Positions 10,736 through 20,474 of a stretch of 64,000 bases of DNA are shown here, piece by piece. Made by a program: the position numbers and the translations under genes. The first letter of the stretch is position 1; every line of letters begins with the position of its first letter. The notes beneath the pieces are model-generated. The model was not told the origin of the DNA. It saw only the letters and a program-made list of their open reading frames with translations, and searched no databases. This DNA comes from a virus, in IMG/VR virus record IMGVR_UViG_3300042503_000983, positions 1-64,000 of that record; one strand, 5' to 3'.

Positions 10736-11067
10736 ATCTTGCTGAGATAGAATCAAGAGTATTTCTTCTGGGATTCTGGAAGAACTATTCTGAACTGGAG
10801 GACTCTATATCAATGCCCGAACTGGTAGCAATACTAGAAGCTAAAAATAGTCAAGAATATGAAAGTAGAAAATTCATGGCAGCTTTACAGGGCGTTGATT
10901 TAGATAGTTCAGATACGTCTAAGAATAAATGGGAAGAGATAAAGGCTAGAGCTTTTAGCAAAGGTGCTACATCGAATCCTAGAGACATTCTTGCCCTTCA
11001 AGGCAAAGCTGCACAACGTGCTGGCTTTGGAATTGGAAATGGCTTGGATTATGAGGTGGTTAATTAA
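10696..11067 (+). CDS. Tail assembly chaperone -1 frameshift extension (GT-like)
   Basis: C-CCA-AAC at 10696-10702 is in correct phase; the -1 frame opens right after TGA 10693-10695 and runs to 11067. Confidence 0.8.
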   Translation, partial: PKRTGSGSSWDELDLAEIESRVFLLGFWKNYSELEDSISMPELVAILEAKNSQEYESRKFMAALQGVDLDSSDTSKNKWEEIKARAFSKGATSNPRDILALQGKAAQRAGFGIGNGLDYEVVN

Positions 11068-14000
11068 TGGCTGGAGTAGCTAAAGGCATTATTGATATCC
11101 AGATAAACACTGGGTCTGCTGCTGCTGAGCTAAAAAAGCTCCAACTACAAATTAACTCCTTTAATTCAGCCCTTTCCAAGGGAAATCTAGCCCAAGCTAA
11201 ATTTGCTACTGACTATACAAGAGATCTTTCAAAAGCAATAAATTCAACTGGAGTTTTTACTTCAGAGTTTGTAAAGTTAAACTCCGCTGCTGCAAATCTT
11301 GACAACACTTTAAAAAGAGGAAGAGGAACTTTAGGTCAATTTTTTAGTTCTGCATTTAATAGAAATAGTGCAGCGTTTGCAGAAACAATGTCTCTTGCAG
11401 CTAGAAGAGCTTCTACCTTGCAAACACAATTTATTTCAACTGGTGCTTCTGCACAAGGTATGGGTGAAGCTCTTGCAATTAGACCTCTAGATGCCTATGC
11501 CTCTAAAGCAGCAATTGCAGCAGAAAGACAAGCCCTTCTAAATACAATGTTTAGACAGGGAACAACCCACATGATTAACTTTGGTAAAAATGTTCAGTGG
11601 GCTGGTCGTCAGCTTATGGTTGGCTTTACCGTACCTTTAACTGTTTTAGGAACAGTCGCAGGTAAAACCTTTATGGATATTGAAAAAGAATTAGTTAATC
11701 TTAAAAAGGTTTATGGAGATGCTTTTACAACTCCAGAAGAAGTAAATCAAAATATTGCACAAGTTAGACAACTTGCTGAAGAATATACAAAATATGGAAT
11801 TGCAGTAAAAGATACTATTGGAATGGCTGCAAATGCAGCAGCTTCTGGTGCAAGAAATGCAGACTTAATAGATGCAACAAGACAAGCAACAAGACTAGCA
11901 ACTCTTGGTCAGATGGAGCAGCAAGAAGCTTTAAAGACTACAATAGCCCTGCAATCTGCTTTTAGACTTTCTGGAGAAGACCTTGCAGATACAATTAACT
12001 TTTTAAATATGGTTGAAAATCAAACAGTAGTTTCTTTGCAAGACTTGTCTGCAGCAATTCCAAGAGTTGCCCCAGTTATTAAAGGTCTTGGTGGAGATGT
12101 ACGAGACATGTCAGTATTCCTTGCAGCAATGCAAGAAGGTGGTGTTAGTGCAGAACAGGGTGCTAACGCACTAAAGTCTGGTCTTGCATCTTTAATTAAT
12201 CCAACAAAAGCAGCAACAGAAACTTTGGGAAGTTTTGGAATTAATCTAGATAAGATAATTTCTACAAATCGTGGAGATTTGATGGGAACAGTATTTGCTT
12301 TTGGTGAGGCACTTAAAGGCTTGGATGATTTTTCAAAGCAACAGGCATTAGAAAAAGTTTTTGGAAAGTATCAGTATGCAAGACTTGGAGCTTTGTTTGA
12401 AAATATTGTTAGAGATGGATCTCAAGCAAGTCAAGTTTTACAATTAATGGAGTATGATGTTGCAGCATTAAAAACTACAGCAGAAAAAGAACTTAGTGCT
12501 GTAGAAAATGCTTTAGGAACACAGCTTATTGGAGCAGTAGAAAGATTAAAGCTATCTCTTGAACCAATTGGAGAGATATTTGTTAAACTTGCTATTCCTT
12601 TTGTAAATTTTCTTACAACTATTGTTGAAAAATTTAATGGGCTATCTGATGGTCAAAAGAAATTTGCAGCAATAGCAGCAGTCCTTGTTGGTGTCGTAAT
12701 TCCTGCTGGAACAATGTTTCTTGGTCTTTTAATTAACTTGCTTGGAACACTTGGAAAAATTAGTCATGGAATTGCAATTTTCGTAAAGTCACTTATTAAG
12801 GGTGGTCCAATAGCAGCAATAAGAACACTTACGCAATCTACCAAATATTTATCAATTGAAGAACTAGAAGCAGCAACTGCTGCAAAGCAATTGTCATCTG
12901 CTACACATATTGCTAAAGCAGCAATGCTAGAACAGGCTACTTCTACAGATATTGCAAGAATAGCTGTGGCAAAGCTTACTGCAGAGTACAGAACTCTTAT
13001 ATCAGCACAGGCACAGGCAGCAGCATTTAATCCAGCATTTAAAACTGCAGGTATGGCAGGAGCTGCAGCAGGTGCAGGTAAAACTGGTTCTGTTACAGTT
13101 AGAGCCCTTAGAAGAAATGCTGGTGGACCAATATTTGTATCTGGAGAAACACAGGTTCCAGGAGTTGGAAATACTGACACCGTTCCAGCAATGCTTACTC
13201 CAGGAGAGTTTGTTGTAAACAAAGAGGCAACTGCAAAAAATTATGCACTTCTTGATGCAATCAATAGTGGAAATAAATTTAATAAGGGCGGAATGATTCC
13301 TGGATACAATCTTGGATCAATGGTTTTAAGAAATAGTCAAGCAAGAAATCAGGCTATTAAGGAAAGATATCTTAGAATGTTTGGACCTGAAGCTCAGGCT
13401 AAAGGGATAAGTCTTGAAGAAAGATTTGGAAATCTTTCACTGCTATCAAGACAAGATCGTATTAAAAACCAAAGAGCTTTAAAACCAAAAAATGTGACAG
13501 CAAGACGAACATCGCCCAACCAACAAAGAGCTCAACAAGATGTACAGGAAGGACCTATTCGAAATGTTCAAAGCGTTGGTAACGCACCACAGAGTGTTAT
13601 AGATGAACTAACGGCAGACTTGGTAGCACTAGGAGCTCCAGCTAATGTTATGGGTGAAAAGGCAAGACTTATCACTCCAACACCAAGATATAAAAGAGAG
13701 GGTCCAGCACTTGAGGGTGATACCAGCTATGGAAAAGAGTTTGACTTTAATAATAGTCTGAGGCGTGGAGTGAGCAACCCTAATCTTGGCGTTGCTAGAA
13801 AAGAAATGGAAGATCTTTTTGCACTAAATCCTCAACTTCATGGAACCTCAACTCCAGTCTCTCCATTTAAACACATATTAGATGAAGCTAACCTTGATCC
13901 TGCTCATTATTCAAGAATTGACTCAGCACTAAGATCTAAGGCTATAGAAATTGTTAAAAGGTCTCCAGAATCTCATAAATTTTCAGATCCTGAATACGGA

Positions 14001-17000
14001 AGAATTATTGTTGACTCATTAAGGGCAGCAAATCTTTCAACTATTCTTCAAGAAAGATTGTTGTCTACAGCAAGAATAATGAATACAGAAATTGGTTCAA
14101 GATCAATGAAAAGGTTTGAACCATACATTAAGGATTCTATTAGATTTAGTGATACTGGTGGCATACATCCAAAGTTTGAACCTGTTCCAAATGCTCCTAG
14201 AGGTGGTACATACATATATACTGCAAGTGATGGAACACGAGTTGAAATAAATGCAGGACAGTCACGACCTATACCTGGAAGATTATCGTATTCAAATCAA
14301 AGATATAATGCAGGTCGCACATATAACAATGCACATGCAGAAGTTCAAGATTTTAATGCTGGTGGAGCTGTTGGAGGTATGCAATATTTTGGCAGAATGA
14401 TGCCAAATCGTGTTGTTGCAAAAAACCAATTTGAAAAGTTCTCTGGAACAAAGATTGCAGAGTCAGAAGGACATAGTAGTAGGTTTAGAAGCCTAGCTGG
14501 AGTTTATGAGGTTAATGGCAGAAAAATGTTTGTTAAGCCATTTCAAACTCTTCAAGAAGCTCAGGCAGAATTAATTGGAAATGCGGCAAGAAGAGCAATT
14601 GCAGGAACTGCAACCCCTGGATCAAGAATTGTAAGAATGGACGGTCCTGAAGGAGAAATATTTGCAACAACTGCTCCAATGATTCCAGGAATGAAATCAG
14701 GATCAACTCTTTCTACTAAAGAACTTGTCAAGCAAATTCCTGCCTCATCAATGCTTGGAGATATGGATGCAACAGCTGGAAATATTATTTCAACTCGTGG
14801 AGGAAGACTTGCAACAATTGATCCTGGTGCTGCAGGTGTTAAGCTAATTAGAAATTCAAAAGGTGTATTTAGAAGAGCTACTGGATCTGAAATTAGTTTT
14901 GGAAATGAAGCAACAAATACTGGAGCATATACAGCAAAAGCAATTACACAGGTTATTGAAAAAACAGGGGCATCAAAAGACTTTGTTAAAATGCTTGGAG
15001 ATTCTATTGCTCGTGAAAAATTAACTAAAGCACAATTTACAAAAATGTATGATGATGCTGTTGAGTCAGCTATTGCAAGAGTGTCTTCCTTTAAACTACC
15101 TTCTAGAATTGGAGATAGATCAAAATTAGATGAGTTAGCAAGAGCATCTGGATATAAAAATGCAGATGAAGCATACTCTGCAATTATGCTTAGAGACCTT
15201 ACTTCAATTAGAGGTTTAAGTGGAGAGATATATACAAGTGCTTCAAGATTCCAAGGAGTGCTAAAGGCAAATAGTGGAACTCTTGTTCCAGGTGTAGGAA
15301 ATACTGATACAGTTCCTGCAATGCTAACTCCTGGAGAGTTTGTAATTAATAAAGATGCTACTGCAAAAAATCTTCCTTTGCTACAGGCAATTAATAACGG
15401 AGAAACAAGAAGGTATGGTCTTGGAGACTATGTTAACCCTCTTGGTTCATTGACAAATGCTCAAAGAATAAAAGGAATTAGACCTTCAGCATCATACCAG
15501 CAATCAAGATCCGCCACTGGATACAATGTCTTTAGTGGAATGGGTTCTGCTGAAAAAATTGCACCAGTCCAGGCAGCATTAAAAACAGGTCCAAAATATA
15601 TATTAGACGCATATAAAGAATCTGGAAAAGCAATTTCAGATGCAGCCAAACCAATGTTAACTTCTTTTAAAGATACAAGTAAGTCTGTTGCAAATGGAGC
15701 AAATAATTTAAAAAATTCTATTAAAGATTATGGAAAATGGAATGTTGTTCCAAGAATGCAAGATGCAAAACAGGCTGTGGCAAACACAAGGGCAGCTATG
15801 GGAACTCCTGAAGCAAAGGCTCTTAGAGCAGAAAGAATGCAAAAAGCTGGTCAAGGAATGATGATGGCTTCAATGATTCCAATGATGGCTTCAGGTTTTG
15901 TAGAAGATCCAAAGCAACAGCAAATGATGATGGCTGCTGGAGGTGCTATGGCTATTCTTCCAATGCTTCAACAGTTTGGTCCAATTTTAGGAGGACTAAC
16001 CCTAGCAGTAGGAGCTGCTGCTGCAGGATTCTTAATGTTTAAAAAGGATATGGATAATACTGCTAAATCAGCTGCAGAATTTGGGTCAAACCTTGGTGGG
16101 GCAGCAAATAGAATGGAAACAATTAGTGCTGCAACTGGTTATGGATTTGCGTCAACAAGATCTTCAGTACAAGACTTTAGATTTACAGAAGAGCAGTCAC
16201 AAGGTGCTGCTGAAATGATGCCTTTCTTTGATACTGATGAGGGTAAAAAGCTTGTAGAAGACTTAAAGGGTGCTTCTTCTGAAGAAAGGTATGAGAAAGT
16301 TGCATCAATGCTAACATTTGCAATAGCAGATGGAATGGATCCTAAAAAAGCAGAGTCTTTTGGATCTGCAATAGCTTTTGCATTAGACGATTCATTATTA
16401 AAATCAAAAACAGTAGCTCTTATTAGATCTGGAAGGCTTCAAAGTGGATCTCAAGCAATGATTAGTGAAATTTCTAAAAGACAGGCAGCTGCAGACTCTT
16501 CAACGGTTTCAGATTTTGAAAAAGCAAAAGCTGAAGAGGCAAAAAGAAATAATACTGCTGGAACTAGTTCCAATGTAAAGTATGGAGGAATTGGGTTAGC
16601 TGCAGGTTTAGGTGCAGGAGTTGCAATCGCTGCATCAACTGCAAAGCTAGCAGCAATGGGTGGTGCAATAGGATCAGTAGTTCCAGTTGTTGGAACTGCT
16701 GTTGGTGCTGTAGCTGGTGCTGTAGTTGGATTAGTGGCTGGTATAGCAGTTTACAATCTAGCAATAAAAAATCAACAAAAACAGGTTGCAGAGTCATCCA
16801 AATCATTTGGAGCAACTATTCAAACATTAAAAGAATTAAACAATGCCGAATCTTTATTAAATGAAGAAAGGTCTAAAGGATTAATAACAGATACTCAGTT
16901 CGAATCTTCTTTAAAACAAATTAATGAAATGAGACAAGTTGAGTATGAAAGAGTTAAGAAGGCTATAGACATTGGAGCAAGTGCAGATGCACAGGCACAA

Positions 17001-20000
17001 GGAATTAAAGACCAGTTAGTGCTTTCTGGATTTAAGGGAGATACTGCTCAGGCAGTTGCATCTAATGTAACAACTGATAGTATTTCAAATAAGCTGTTCC
17101 AAAAAGATATGGACAAGCTAGATCAAGCTCAAAAAGATGTAGTAACTGGAATTATGGCAAGCACTTTGGATGGAATAACTGAAGAAAATGCTGGAGCAAA
17201 AATTGGAGACATAACAGACATCTATGCAAAAATAGCAGATGAACTAGTTACAGCAGCAGCAGATGGCTTAACCTCAGAAGAAATTAGGGCTGAAGCAGAA
17301 AAGGAACAAATTAGAAAGTTTGCTGAATCTGCAGCATCTAATCTTGTGAACCTAACTCCTGAACAACAGGCTGCAAGAGCAAATACTATGGCAAGCAATG
17401 TTAGTGCTGCACTTCCTAATGTAAATAAGATGGGTGTCACTACTTCTCAACTAGTAAGTGGAATTTCAGGGGTAAGTGCAGAAGATCAAGCAAAGATAAC
17501 AGAGTCAACTGCTAATGTTGAAAAATTTGCACAGCTTTTAAATAGTCTTCCAGAAGGATATGACCTATCTCTAGCAATGGAATATTTCTCTGGAGATAAT
17601 AAAGAACAAGATGTAGATGCATTCTATAAAACACAAAAAGATGCTATTGATAAAATTGCAGAACTTATGCCAAAGGGAGCAGATGCTCAGGCAATCTATA
17701 CCGCACTCAAAGGACCTGGAAAAGATCCAGTTAAAGAGTTAGAGGCTGCAAATAAAAAAGCTCAAGAAATGTTTGATTCTCTAGGTGGAGATGAAGCTAA
17801 AGTAAAGAGCGTTGTATTTGAAAGTACTGGGTACGACATGACACAGGCAGAAGTAGATGCCTTTGGTGCACTTCCTGCAAGTGAGCAAAAATCATATTTA
17901 GCATCATTTACCATTGCAACTATGTCAGTTGGAAATGCACCAACTATTCCTCAGTCAGGAGCTCCTGCAGAAATGTCAGCCTACTACAAGAGACTAGAGG
18001 TTTGGAAAAAAGCTGTAGCAGATCAACAAAAAGCTATCCAGTCAGTAATTCCTCAGACAGTTGTTAATACTGATGACAACGGTAGTAGCTCTGGCGGAAC
18101 AAAGCCTCCTAGCAAAAAGGCTCAAGCAAAAACTTTCTTAAAAGATGCTACTACGAATAACAAAGTTCTTAAAAATTACACAAACCTAGTTAAAGGTGCT
18201 GCAACAGCTAACAATATAGAAGCCCTTAGCATGATTCCTCAAGATGTATACATGAATCTTTCTACTGAAAATAGAAAGAAATTGATTAAAGAAATGCAAA
18301 AGCAAATTGCGTATCAACAAAGATTAAATGCAGTAACAGTTTTAGCAGAAACTCAAAAAGCTACAGCAGATATGAAAAAATATTCAAAAGCACTTAACTC
18401 TTTGGGTGTTGTAATAACTTCAGATATCGAAGGAATGATTGACCAGAAAGCATTCCTTGCTATGACTACTGAAGAAAGAAAGGCATACATTGCAGAGCTG
18501 AATAAACAATCAGTAGCACAAGCTAAGCTAGCAGCAACTATGGCACTTGCAGATGCCAAAAAACAAACTAGCGATATGCAAAAATATTCTGCTGCACTAG
18601 GTGGACTAGGTGTTGCAATAAGCTCAGACATTGAAGGAATGATTGATCAAAAAGCATTCCTTGCTATGAACACTGCTCAAAGAAAAGCATATATTGCAGA
18701 GCTAAATAAGCAGACTTTGGCACAGGCTAAGCTAGCAGCTGCAATGGAAATTACAGACATGCAACAACAAACTCAAGAAATGCAAAATTACTTTAATGCA
18801 ATTTCTCCAATCGCTGCTGCTGCTGGGGCAGAAGTTTTGGGAATGATAGATACAGAAAAGTATCTTGCAATGACTACTACACAAAGGGAGGAATATGTAA
18901 AACAGCTAACTTCTCAGCTAAATGTTCAAAGAGCACTTGATTATTTAACACAGACTTCTCAAGAAAGAACAATGGATGCAATAGATGCAGAATCTTCAGC
19001 AATAAATATTAAGAATTCTGCATTACAAAACTCCCTTTCTGGAATGGAAAGAGAAAATGAGTTAATACAACGTCAAATAAGTTTAAGAAACCATGCTCTT
19101 GATTTGTTAGCAAAAGAAGAAGAAAAGATTAATACAACTTATGATGATAGAGTAAAGGCTCTTGATAAGGTTGCTAATGCAAATGATAGAATTGCTCAAA
19201 AAGATCGTTCAAGATTAGACCTAGCTTCAGCACTTGCATCTGGAGATATTTCTGCTGCAGCAGGTGCAGCAAGTGCAATGCAACAAGAAGAGGCACAGTT
19301 TAGAATTGAGGACGCAAGGGCAGCACTTGAAGCAAAAAGACAAAAAGAACTTGAATCGTTAACAGTTTCTGTAAATGGTGTAATGATGACAAGAAAGCAA
19401 ATTACAGAACAAATATCTCAGTTTGGTGAGACTATTTACAAAAATGAACAAGACATGATTTTAATTCAAGACCAACTTTATGCTAACTCTCTTGCACAAA
19501 AAGTACTAGATGATCAAAGAATGAAGTTAGAACAGCAAGTTTTGTTAATAAAAATGAGACAAAATATTGAAGCCTTAAGAGCACAGGGGTTAACTGGTCA
19601 AGCTTTAATAGATTTTCAAAATTATATTGATGCCTATAATACCCTTCAGGCAGCAGCTGCAGCAGCTGACATTGGAAATCCTGGAGCTGCTGCAAATACA
19701 ACATTGGGTGCTGGTGGCGGAGGAGGAGCTGCTGCAGTAATTGCTGCTCCAACTCCTGTAGCTGCTGTAACTCCAGTAACTCCACCACCACCGCCTCCTC
19801 CACCACCGCCTCCTCCACCACCTCCACCGCCACCACCTCCACCGCCACCACCGCCACCACCACCTGTTTATAGCTATTATACAAAAGCTCAATTCAATGC
19901 TGGAATAAAAGACTCAAAAGTTTCTTATGGAAATGGAAGTGAGCAGCATTACATAGCCAGAAAGTTGGGCTATTCGAATCCAACTGCTAGAACAGTAAAA

Positions 20001-20474
20001 GCAGACGAGATGGACAATGTTTATTGGGCTCTTTCAGAAGCAAGAAGGCAAGAGATTACAGAGTTAGTAAAAGAAGCAAGAGCCTCTACATCAAAAGCAT
20101 TTTCTGGATATAACAGTGGAGGTCTTGTTGCAGGACCTGGAAATACTGACAGTATATCTGCAATGCTCACCCCTGGAGAATTTGTAGTAAGAAGATCTAT
20201 GGTGGATAAATATGGAATGTCACTGCTTGAAGCAATAAATATGGGTGCTTTTAAAATGCCAAACATGCAGGAGCCTAAGTTTAGCTTTAGTGATTCTGGA
20301 AGATATGATACTGGAATTAGTGATGCAAGAGTTACTGAAACAATGTATAATAATGTATATAACTTAAATGTTAATGTTGCTGGAACAGATGCCTCACCAG
20401 ACGATATTGCAAATGTAGTTATGGCAAAGCTTTCACAGCAAAATAGAGGAAATTTAAGGAGCAATAGATACTAA
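11067..20474 (+). CDS. Tape measure protein, 3135 aa, with internal cargo domains
   Basis: N-terminal TP901-like TMP region, hydrophobic segments, coiled coils, three TD(T/S)xxAMLTPGEFV motifs. Confidence 0.95.
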   Translation: MAGVAKGIIDIQINTGSAAAELKKLQLQINSFNSALSKGNLAQAKFATDYTRDLSKAINSTGVFTSEFVKLNSAAANLDNTLKRGRGTLGQFFSSAFNRNSAAFAETMSLAARRASTLQTQFISTGASAQGMGEALAIRPLDAYASKAAIAAERQALLNTMFRQGTTHMINFGKNVQWAGRQLMVGFTVPLTVLGTVAGKTFMDIEKELVNLKKVYGDAFTTPEEVNQNIAQVRQLAEEYTKYGIAVKDTIGMAANAAASGARNADLIDATRQATRLATLGQMEQQEALKTTIALQSAFRLSGEDLADTINFLNMVENQTVVSLQDLSAAIPRVAPVIKGLGGDVRDMSVFLAAMQEGGVSAEQGANALKSGLASLINPTKAATETLGSFGINLDKIISTNRGDLMGTVFAFGEALKGLDDFSKQQALEKVFGKYQYARLGALFENIVRDGSQASQVLQLMEYDVAALKTTAEKELSAVENALGTQLIGAVERLKLSLEPIGEIFVKLAIPFVNFLTTIVEKFNGLSDGQKKFAAIAAVLVGVVIPAGTMFLGLLINLLGTLGKISHGIAIFVKSLIKGGPIAAIRTLTQSTKYLSIEELEAATAAKQLSSATHIAKAAMLEQATSTDIARIAVAKLTAEYRTLISAQAQAAAFNPAFKTAGMAGAAAGAGKTGSVTVRALRRNAGGPIFVSGETQVPGVGNTDTVPAMLTPGEFVVNKEATAKNYALLDAINSGNKFNKGGMIPGYNLGSMVLRNSQARNQAIKERYLRMFGPEAQAKGISLEERFGNLSLLSRQDRIKNQRALKPKNVTARRTSPNQQRAQQDVQEGPIRNVQSVGNAPQSVIDELTADLVALGAPANVMGEKARLITPTPRYKREGPALEGDTSYGKEFDFNNSLRRGVSNPNLGVARKEMEDLFALNPQLHGTSTPVSPFKHILDEANLDPAHYSRIDSALRSKAIEIVKRSPESHKFSDPEYGRIIVDSLRAANLSTILQERLLSTARIMNTEIGSRSMKRFEPYIKDSIRFSDTGGIHPKFEPVPNAPRGGTYIYTASDGTRVEINAGQSRPIPGRLSYSNQRYNAGRTYNNAHAEVQDFNAGGAVGGMQYFGRMMPNRVVAKNQFEKFSGTKIAESEGHSSRFRSLAGVYEVNGRKMFVKPFQTLQEAQAELIGNAARRAIAGTATPGSRIVRMDGPEGEIFATTAPMIPGMKSGSTLSTKELVKQIPASSMLGDMDATAGNIISTRGGRLATIDPGAAGVKLIRNSKGVFRRATGSEISFGNEATNTGAYTAKAITQVIEKTGASKDFVKMLGDSIAREKLTKAQFTKMYDDAVESAIARVSSFKLPSRIGDRSKLDELARASGYKNADEAYSAIMLRDLTSIRGLSGEIYTSASRFQGVLKANSGTLVPGVGNTDTVPAMLTPGEFVINKDATAKNLPLLQAINNGETRRYGLGDYVNPLGSLTNAQRIKGIRPSASYQQSRSATGYNVFSGMGSAEKIAPVQAALKTGPKYILDAYKESGKAISDAAKPMLTSFKDTSKSVANGANNLKNSIKDYGKWNVVPRMQDAKQAVANTRAAMGTPEAKALRAERMQKAGQGMMMASMIPMMASGFVEDPKQQQMMMAAGGAMAILPMLQQFGPILGGLTLAVGAAAAGFLMFKKDMDNTAKSAAEFGSNLGGAANRMETISAATGYGFASTRSSVQDFRFTEEQSQGAAEMMPFFDTDEGKKLVEDLKGASSEERYEKVASMLTFAIADGMDPKKAESFGSAIAFALDDSLLKSKTVALIRSGRLQSGSQAMISEISKRQAAADSSTVSDFEKAKAEEAKRNNTAGTSSNVKYGGIGLAAGLGAGVAIAASTAKLAAMGGAIGSVVPVVGTAVGAVAGAVVGLVAGIAVYNLAIKNQQKQVAESSKSFGATIQTLKELNNAESLLNEERSKGLITDTQFESSLKQINEMRQVEYERVKKAIDIGASADAQAQGIKDQLVLSGFKGDTAQAVASNVTTDSISNKLFQKDMDKLDQAQKDVVTGIMASTLDGITEENAGAKIGDITDIYAKIADELVTAAADGLTSEEIRAEAEKEQIRKFAESAASNLVNLTPEQQAARANTMASNVSAALPNVNKMGVTTSQLVSGISGVSAEDQAKITESTANVEKFAQLLNSLPEGYDLSLAMEYFSGDNKEQDVDAFYKTQKDAIDKIAELMPKGADAQAIYTALKGPGKDPVKELEAANKKAQEMFDSLGGDEAKVKSVVFESTGYDMTQAEVDAFGALPASEQKSYLASFTIATMSVGNAPTIPQSGAPAEMSAYYKRLEVWKKAVADQQKAIQSVIPQTVVNTDDNGSSSGGTKPPSKKAQAKTFLKDATTNNKVLKNYTNLVKGAATANNIEALSMIPQDVYMNLSTENRKKLIKEMQKQIAYQQRLNAVTVLAETQKATADMKKYSKALNSLGVVITSDIEGMIDQKAFLAMTTEERKAYIAELNKQSVAQAKLAATMALADAKKQTSDMQKYSAALGGLGVAISSDIEGMIDQKAFLAMNTAQRKAYIAELNKQTLAQAKLAAAMEITDMQQQTQEMQNYFNAISPIAAAAGAEVLGMIDTEKYLAMTTTQREEYVKQLTSQLNVQRALDYLTQTSQERTMDAIDAESSAINIKNSALQNSLSGMERENELIQRQISLRNHALDLLAKEEEKINTTYDDRVKALDKVANANDRIAQKDRSRLDLASALASGDISAAAGAASAMQQEEAQFRIEDARAALEAKRQKELESLTVSVNGVMMTRKQITEQISQFGETIYKNEQDMILIQDQLYANSLAQKVLDDQRMKLEQQVLLIKMRQNIEALRAQGLTGQALIDFQNYIDAYNTLQAAAAAADIGNPGAAANTTLGAGGGGGAAAVIAAPTPVAAVTPVTPPPPPPPPPPPPPPPPPPPPPPPPPPPPVYSYYTKAQFNAGIKDSKVSYGNGSEQHYIARKLGYSNPTARTVKADEMDNVYWALSEARRQEITELVKEARASTSKAFSGYNSGGLVAGPGNTDSISAMLTPGEFVVRRSMVDKYGMSLLEAINMGAFKMPNMQEPKFSFSDSGRYDTGISDARVTETMYNNVYNLNVNVAGTDASPDDIANVVMAKLSQQNRGNLRSNRY
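19782..19865 (+). repeat. Poly-proline run (28 Pro) in TMP
   Basis: Uninterrupted CCA/CCG/CCT codons. Confidence 0.95.

Follow-up and report, generated by a model that had tools for sequence, protein, structure and literature searches.

A repeated GEFV junction motif and an optional kinase-like module in the giant tape measure protein of an uncultured siphophage

The window analysed here, 64,000 nucleotides (nt) covering positions 1 to 64,000 of IMG/VR virus record IMGVR_UViG_3300042503_000983, encodes a giant tape measure protein (TMP) in which a motif of ~47 amino acids (aa), here called the GEFV motif, occurs three times. The first copy is a homology and recombination breakpoint, and the motif acts as a module junction. 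An atypical protein-kinase-like domain predicted between the first two copies forms a module that is optional among TMPs sharing the N-terminal module, with at least 9 gains or losses. The interpretation that we favour, with a probability of roughly 0.6, is that this is the modular TMP of an uncultured siphophage, whose modules are joined by a junction unit and whose optional kinase is active, delivered and cytoplasmic. The protein begins with a conserved N-terminal TMP module (aa 1–696) closed by unit 1, followed by an optional cargo, comprising a basic recombining segment and the kinase-like domain, that is closed by unit 2. A third module consists of a basic linker, probable membrane-inserting segments and a long helical ruler, with unit 3 and a short, presumably hub-binding tail at the end. 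The junction unit would be a structural joint, and its conservation in DNA and protein sequence would allow the parts downstream of it to be exchanged between related phages. At infection, an active kinase would leave the tail with the TMP, take up a position on the cytoplasmic face, where ATP is available, and there phosphorylate a protein or lipid of the host, ahead of all phage gene expression.

The motif (VPGVGNTDTVPAMLTPGEFV...) starts at aa 697, 1407 and 3021 (nt 13155, 15285 and 20127), exactly where a sequence-only reading of the window had reported two near-identical copies and a third variant. Its consensus is GG..VPG.GN.D.VPAMLTPGEFV..K.A...N..LL.AIN.G, often followed by FNxGG. Copies 1 and 2 are identical at 34/47 aa and 99/141 nt. 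Differing codons specify 14 of these 34 identical residues, so the two copies are an old duplication kept by protein-level selection and not the result of recent conversion. Copy 3 is more distant and shares 20/47 aa with copy 1 and 18/47 aa with copy 2. The TMP contains 27 repeated 8-mers, compared with 0 in 200 residue shuffles, and a hidden Markov model of the motif matches the TMP only, among the 336 six-frame open reading frames (ORFs; at least 50 aa) of the window. A Gly/Ala-rich run (AGMAGAAAGAGKTGS) is located ahead of copy 1, and no such run was observed upstream of copies 2 and 3. A three-copy complex prediction of the motif unit scored 0.02, which counts neither for nor against a trimer.

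The GEFV motif is a widespread, unnamed TMP element and is not peculiar to the cassette between copies 1 and 2. PHROG TMP families hold the motif near their C-terminal ends (for example, 687–746 of 810 and 784–841 of 900), no Pfam family covers it, and the median distance between the end of the last motif and that of the protein is 145 aa across 123 database TMPs. When the cassette region was searched with tblastn against 50,697 phage records, 107 records matched, all of them over less than 80% of the query. Among the matches listed, query coverage was 7–21%, almost all of it at the query end or ends where the motif copies sit. Annotated matches lie nearly all in TMP genes, and the records include 81 from Gordonia phages, 9 from Nodularia phages and others. 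Among PDB sequences, the mycobacteriophage Douge TMP (8zdo; 1699 aa) is the sole match, with two internal copies at 970–1027 and 1420–1472. The TMP of Gordonia phage Mcklovin carries three copies (1000–1039, 2025–2065 and 2361–2409), and its SLT domain (aa 1933–2023) ends just before the second; the metagenomic TMP P0057 is alike (SLT at 1389–1458, motif at 1487–1526). The D, G and E of D.VPAxLxPGE are kept in 48/48 motif instances.

A search with P0005 added 80 IMG/VR loci, with N-terminal modules 41–70% identical to that of the window, and the total of 85 loci yielded 81 motif-bearing ORFs of at least 600 aa. Nearly all of these ORFs have one motif copy at ~aa 670–740 and one ~80–150 aa from the C-terminus, with 0–4 further copies in between and a total copy number of 1 to 6. 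The idea that the motif marks the cassette alone was not upheld, since nearly all TMPs of the family carry it, and only 9/17 assessable kinase ORFs have a motif 17–69 aa downstream of the kinase. Two relatives encode even longer TMPs: L063 (9848–22357) has a 3´-open ORF of at least 4170 aa with six motif copies, and L069 (6499–20235) has an ORF of 4579 aa with four. Pfam searches of these two giants found PF10145 and no other domain. In L072 (ORFs from 9869 and 13850) and L091 (from 6135 and 9999), two consecutive ORFs make up the TMP: the first covers the N-module with motif 1, and the long one after it terminates in the C-terminal motif. A natural split, a frameshift or an assembly error could each account for this arrangement.

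The role of the motif as a junction is evident from comparisons with relatives. Four IMG/VR relatives (L001–L004) have collinear TMPs of 3058–3244 aa with all three motif copies. Identity to the window is ~80–100% over aa 1–600, 56–74% over aa 601–700, 2–26% over aa 750–1100 (except L001, 16–56%), 66–96% (mostly 80–96%) over aa 1101–1450 and 14–50% over aa 1450–1600. Within this clade, nucleotide identity drops abruptly from 85–95% to ~40% right after motif 1 and drops again after motif 2, and the identity profile of the variable parts reveals mosaic sub-blocks. The window and L001 share aa 833–1090 (50–80% nucleotide identity) but not aa 746–830, and L001 and L004 share aa 746–820 with each other but not the remainder. 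The linker of the window (aa 744–832) has ~36–53% nucleotide identity to all relatives. Such abrupt transitions and mosaic blocks form a pattern as produced by recombination. Related TMPs were compared in 185 pairs that have an N-terminal match at 60% identity or more. The collinear match stops between 10 aa before and 30 aa after the end of motif 1 in 141 pairs (median offset 0); in the other pairs, it ends 11–60 aa earlier (12), ends 31–100 aa later (9) or runs more than 100 aa on (23). BLAST clustering of the 400 aa that follow motif 1 in 70 TMPs gave 15 clusters. The repeats had been proposed to be recombination boundaries of a cassette exchanged as whole domains. The boundary at motif 1 is confirmed by these results, and abrupt mosaic blocks were found at the variable segment, but the kinase half is conserved.

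The region between copies 1 and 2 (aa 744–1405) is basic (Lys plus Arg 13–19% versus Asp plus Glu 8–11%) and contains 8–12% Ala compared with 15–17% in the flanks, in agreement with the earlier description of a basic stretch unlike its Ala-rich surroundings. Its first part, aa 744–1094, is hypervariable and recombinationally mosaic. The pre-kinase segments of the window and L001 are 47% identical over the whole segment by BLASTP and 52% identical in alignment A2. Neither Pfam nor PHROGs gave a match to the variable segment, and an ESM Atlas look-up was uninformative (best scores 0.75–0.76). A comparison of segment types with hhalign linked only type B (L002/P0002) and type C (L004/P0003), at 94.8% probability over 92 columns. 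This profile match is beyond the reach of BLAST, which suggests that at least part of the variable segment is a fast-diverging common domain. Type A, to which the window belongs, matches the other types only at the linkers, so that a swap and extreme divergence look alike for this type. The lead-in FNxGG..QYF..MPNR occurs twice in L001 and L004, after motif 1 and before the kinase, which gives the variable segment the appearance of having been inserted into this linker. L063 has a full motif ahead of the kinase lead-in, whereas its close relatives L058 and L069 hold the lead-in alone. Short [FY]xxG[GS] motifs had been taken to divide the region into domains. FNAGG (aa 1096) fits this role, as it is conserved in all relatives and starts the kinase lead-in FNxGG..QYFG..MPNRVV, but FNKGG (aa 738) forms the tail end of motif 1 and YNLGS is not conserved.

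The conserved second part adopts a kinase-like fold in structure prediction. An AlphaFold2 model built from eight sequences has a predicted template modelling score (pTM) of 0.62 and a secondary-structure order that is the same as that of kinases. The blocks of the domain mostly have a predicted local distance difference test score (pLDDT) of 60–89, and a disordered loop (model residues 158–206) is below 50. A Foldseek search against the PDB gave 9 matches at E ≤ 0.001, all of which are kinases, including LepB (1.9e-4), CtkA (7.9e-4), HPK1 and B-RAF. VIA-align against 48,161 chains ranked CtkA highest (Z 11.9; 4.3 Å, 209 aa), followed by PI4KIIalpha (10.2), MavQ (10.0) and CotH (9.8), and kinase-fold proteins account for 49 of the best 50 matches listed. 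In BFVD, the highest-ranking match comes from a haloarchaeal tailed virus and has a PI3K/PI4K catalytic domain (E 3.4e-7); large proteins from actinophages, several in number, match the model as well.

Eight residues (K1157, E1168, Q1223, D1232, D1234, N1239, D1252 and G1254) are invariant in 37/37 homologues that are 21–91% identical to the window. The catalytic set is complete (Lys, Glu, DxDxxxxN and DxG), with N1239 located five residues past D1234 and then an Asp-x-Gly, which is a protein-kinase-like arrangement. The roles of strand-3 Lys, helix-C Glu, catalytic-loop Asp/Asn and metal-binding Asp are assigned by order, spacing and the secondary structure of the model, not by residue-level superposition. 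A GxS just ahead of the glycine-rich strand is conserved in 35/37 sequences. Among close relatives, the domain is 85–91% identical, and P0003 is 69% identical. In Pfam and PDB sequence searches, the domain matched none of the named families PI3K/PI4K PF00454, HipA, CotH PF08757 and Pkinase. On the basis of the model, the domain is a new sequence family of the known protein-kinase-like fold, and the modelled fold by itself does not discriminate between a protein and a lipid substrate.

The kinase family is rare. A phmmer search against 1.84 billion representatives retrieved 6 proteins, and a profile search retrieved 290 proteins at E ≤ 0.001. The kinase is present in 22 of the 124 proteins examined (the window's own, the six phmmer proteins and the best 120 of the 290 profile hits, three of which overlap), and the others match through the motif. 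In the 119–482-aa class, a profile search with 8000 candidates scored gave only 3 short proteins, which are on 0.9–2.1-kb contigs. P0006 (2221 aa) is a kinase-bearing, TMP-like protein that lacks the N-terminal TMP module. Visual inspection of the first ~200 residues shows an HxxH-type signature, which we take to be reminiscent of nucleotidyltransferases.

Within the family, 20/81 motif-bearing ORFs contain the kinase. On a tree of 74 N-modules, its presence needs 9 changes, whereas label shuffles needed 17.5 on average and never fewer than 13. The tree omits ORFs that lack a WAGRQ/WSGRQ anchor 150 aa or more into the ORF, N-module pieces shorter than 600 aa and 3´-open ORFs with less than 750 aa downstream. 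Very close N-modules differ in kinase presence, for example, L016 versus L048 and L012 versus L029. A motif is located upstream of the kinase in 20/20 locus ORFs, at a distance of 11–29 aa in nine and 258–351 aa in eleven, and downstream within 17–69 aa in 9/17 assessable ORFs (three others are 3´-open). The cassette is thus swappable in one sense, in that the presence of the kinase and the non-enzymatic segment vary, but it is not a set of toxin tips. An N-module search of genome contigs gave no match. A profile search gave 16 loci (L092–L107) in bins of metagenome-assembled genomes with discordant taxon labels (Methylococcus, Flavobacterium, Aquiluna, Acidimicrobiaceae, Bacteroidia, a cyanobacterium and others); mis-binning of phage contigs is the probable cause.

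The kinase may be active and may be delivered with the TMP. The domain is positioned between hydrophobic clusters (aa 501–573 on one side, 1640–1658 and 1841–1895 on the other) and is flanked by strongly basic linkers, which suggests a cytoplasmic loop. Several points weigh against this interpretation. A folded domain of ~30 kDa in three to six copies should not fit in the lumen of the tail tube, and the cytoplasmic placement is drawn from hydrophobicity and charge only. Structure prediction of the inter-motif parts, which the sequence-only reading had regarded as globular, recovered the kinase-like fold at a middling confidence (pLDDT 60.5), but the model of aa 821–1100 in the variable segment, from a two-sequence alignment, is unusable (pLDDT 35.2). 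The TM-scores of the nine Foldseek matches are low (0.24–0.30). Pfam at E ≤ 10 gives no kinase family for the domain, the only hit being DUF7863 at a chance-level 0.056, and the domain profile finds no kinase among PDB sequences. Motif 2 is not universal, as 7/17 assessable ORFs have only the far C-terminal motif downstream of the kinase and 1/17 has a motif at 201 aa; in P0006 and P0007, no motif at all precedes the kinase. The 185 pairs that define the breakpoint are phylogenetically non-independent, and the N-module tree was inferred by FastTree only.

Other explanations account for parts of these data. It is possible, but rather unlikely, that the TMP is a polyprotein in which each GEFV unit directs maturation cleavage, as in the conversion of lambda gpH to gpH* and gpHC. 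The products would be an N-terminal TMP piece, a free ~78-kDa segment-plus-kinase, a channel/ruler piece and a ~115-aa hub plug. Residues 751–785 of the 853-aa gpH match the motif profile with 8.4 bits, compared with a maximum of 4.3 in 500 shuffles, and this putative copy comes directly after the Gly/Ala-rich stretch where gpH is cut. According to the available text of PMC12617516, gpH loses a C-terminal peptide of ~14 kDa through a cut within its glycine-rich region, with neither the site nor the protease mapped. Motif 3 starts 115 aa from the end of the TMP, which, like the database median of 145 aa, is near the size of gpHC and of the 92-residue T5 pb2C (PMC12617516, available text). The Gly/Ala-rich run ahead of motif 1 and the invariant D, G and E are also consistent with cleavage. 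However, the lambda match is weak and short, and a narrower motif profile gave a weaker match; Pfam PF09718 on gpH spans 654–701 and not the motif. Copies 2 and 3 lack an upstream Gly/Ala-rich run, and in the Douge structure the TMP is traced only at residues 1658–1699, outside both internal copies (PMC13033339, available text). That the GEFV unit is the long-sought TMP cleavage determinant from lambda to the giants, with the TMP a polyprotein from which a free kinase effector would be fired ahead of the DNA, is an analogy that we regard as unlikely. The same tentative standing applies to its extension, in which the kinase would knock out a host defence or reshape the site of entry and effectors would be reshuffled by recombination at the unit.

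The kinase might instead act on the phage machinery, by phosphorylating the TMP or tail proteins or by using ATP in channel formation or DNA entry. The confinement of the domain to long TMP-like proteins, with only three short proteins among the 8000 candidates scored in the 119–482-aa class, agrees with this, and the conserved GxS could be an autophosphorylation site, but the module is dispensable. Its absence from 61/81 related TMP ORFs indicates that the kinase is not a core part of ejection, and we consider such a role quite unlikely. An origin of the repeats as a by-product of ruler growth, with internal duplication, a spacer between the repeats and a kinase-like fold that is a structural pseudo-enzyme, is very unlikely. 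The ruler part does contain a 204-nt (68-aa) tandem repeat at 18405–18787 (Tandem Repeats Finder; 1.9 copies, 79% matches), L001–L003 lack ~42 aa at this site, which suggests tail-length variation among relatives, and the motif copy number varies. However, the segments between motif copies are mutually dissimilar, a full catalytic set that is invariant down to 21% identity is unexpected for a spacer or a dead enzyme, and the synonymous differences between copies 1 and 2 show long-term selection on the peptide. The sequence-only reading had likened the cassette to a polymorphic-toxin system, that is, a constant delivery scaffold with alternative toxic enzyme tips exchanged between phages. The 15 clusters of the post-motif region, the occurrence of kinase and SLT as alternative occupants in different TMPs and the existence of TMP-like effectors of contractile injection systems with diverse functional domains (PMC13277306, available text) would be expected from such a system. 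The pattern in the clade of the window is the reverse, as the enzyme domain is conserved and the non-enzymatic segment varies. The kinase is also the only enzyme family recognised in the TMP family, Pfam finds nothing else in the two giant relatives, and the cargo is internal and not a C-terminal tip. A toxin system of this type is therefore highly improbable.

The features of the TMP gene are given in Table 1. The gene is located in a tail module, with portal and capsid genes upstream; an Ig-domain protein (a likely tube protein) and two small ORFs directly precede it, and a minor tail protein (phrog_10359) and a tail protein (phrog_9983) follow. The source record has 72,942 bases and an estimated completeness of 68%. 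The N-terminal part of the TMP matches PF10145 (PhageMin_Tail/TP901-type) with 97.4 bits (cut-off 33.2), and aa 1–690 match TMP PHROGs (best 5.4e-96). Megablast found no close relative among GenBank phages, the only DNA-level matches being 56–68 nt long, with 84–91% identity, to the TMP genes of 12 Streptomyces phage records. They are located at 11563–11636 (gene nt 497–570), which codes for the invariant N-module block NxGKNxQWAGRQLxVG. A run of 28 consecutive prolines (19782–19865) is located 88 aa upstream of motif 3. For the C-terminal end, residues 1658–1699 of the Douge TMP (PMC13033339) and residues 818–849 of lambda gpH (PMC12617516) are held by the baseplate hub, according to the available texts.

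Table 1. Positions of features in the TMP gene of the window, with the basis of each assignment.
Feature	Position (nt)	Strand	Basis or remark
TMP gene, 3135 aa, one open frame	11067..20474	+	ORF list, translation
Conserved N-terminal TMP module, aa 1–696	11067..13154	+	PF10145 at aa 235–433; hydrophobic segments at aa 501–573
GEFV motif copy 1, aa 697–743	13155..13295	+	closes N-terminal module; family homology breakpoint
Variable basic linker, aa 744–832	13296..13562	+	Lys plus Arg 19%, Asp plus Glu 8%
Variable segment, fold not assigned, aa 833–1094	13563..14348	+	common only to the window and L001
Kinase-module lead-in FNAGG..QYFGRMMPNRVV, aa 1096–1118	14352..14420	+	conserved in relatives
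Atypical protein-kinase-like domain (predicted), aa 1121–1394	14427..15248	+	AlphaFold2 model, structure searches, invariant residues
GEFV motif copy 2, aa 1407–1453	15285..15425	+	12 aa past the kinase domain
Second variable basic linker, aa 1455–1600	15429..15866	+	Lys plus Arg 15%, Asp plus Glu 6%
Hydrophobic clusters, aa 1640–1658 and 1841–1895, probably membrane-inserting	15984..16751	+	Kyte-Doolittle scan
Long ruler region rich in Ala/Glu/Lys/Gln	16752..19781	+	composition
GEFV motif copy 3, aa 3021–3067	20127..20267	+	starts 115 aa from C-terminus; canonical TMP position of the motif
C-terminal tail, aa 3070–3135, presumed hub-binding end	20274..20471	+	analogy with Douge TMP and lambda gpH

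TMPs are commonly regarded as rulers and channel formers with a passive role. Wall hydrolases embedded in TMPs and a polymerase fused to one are already known; literature searches, mostly at the title level, found no paper on a kinase domain in a TMP or on the GEFV junction motif. If the favoured interpretation is true, some phages supply the host with a signalling or modifying enzyme as soon as they infect it, ahead of transcription, which would be a new route of takeover or counter-defence. The junction motif would provide a concrete rule for the assembly and exchange of giant TMPs, with a candidate at the lambda gpH cleavage site, and could guide the engineering of cargo-carrying TMPs.

The closest comparisons are with other TMPs that carry enzymes. 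Reportedly, peptidoglycan-hydrolase motifs inside actinophage TMPs were described by Piuri and Hatfull in 2006. The SLT domain of Mcklovin resembles the kinase module in that a small globular enzyme is embedded in the TMP and adjoins a GEFV motif, but TMP wall hydrolases act on the cell wall outside the membrane, whereas a kinase needs ATP, implying a cytoplasmic site. Gp96 of Thermus phage P23-45, a 5,002-aa TMP fused to a virion RNA polymerase that is proposed to act at the TMP pore, is a precedent for a giant TMP with an enzyme in the same polypeptide (PMC10770324, available text). In gp96 the enzyme is an RNA polymerase in the N-terminal portion, whereas the predicted kinase-like domain is internal, optional and located between repeated motifs. 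Lambda gpH carries a putative diverged copy of the motif ~100 aa from the C-terminus, just after a Gly-rich region, but has only this one copy and no embedded enzyme, and a link between motif and cleavage in gpH would be conjectural. Sle1-type effectors of actinobacterial contractile injection systems have a TMP-like coiled-coil scaffold with domains that differ between relatives and are experimentally exchangeable (PMC13277306, available text). Unlike the present TMP, they are cargo of bacterial injection machines with a C-terminal variable domain, and neither a kinase nor the junction motif is mentioned in the available text of that source (PMC13277306). Among kinases, the best structural matches, CtkA (3akj), PI4KIIalpha (4hnd), MavQ (7m7a) and CotH (5jda), align over 209–219 residues with Z 9.8–11.9. 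They differ from the TMP domain in sequence (10–12% identity, no sequence-level match) and share with it the Lys, the Glu, the catalytic D..N loop and the metal-binding Asp.

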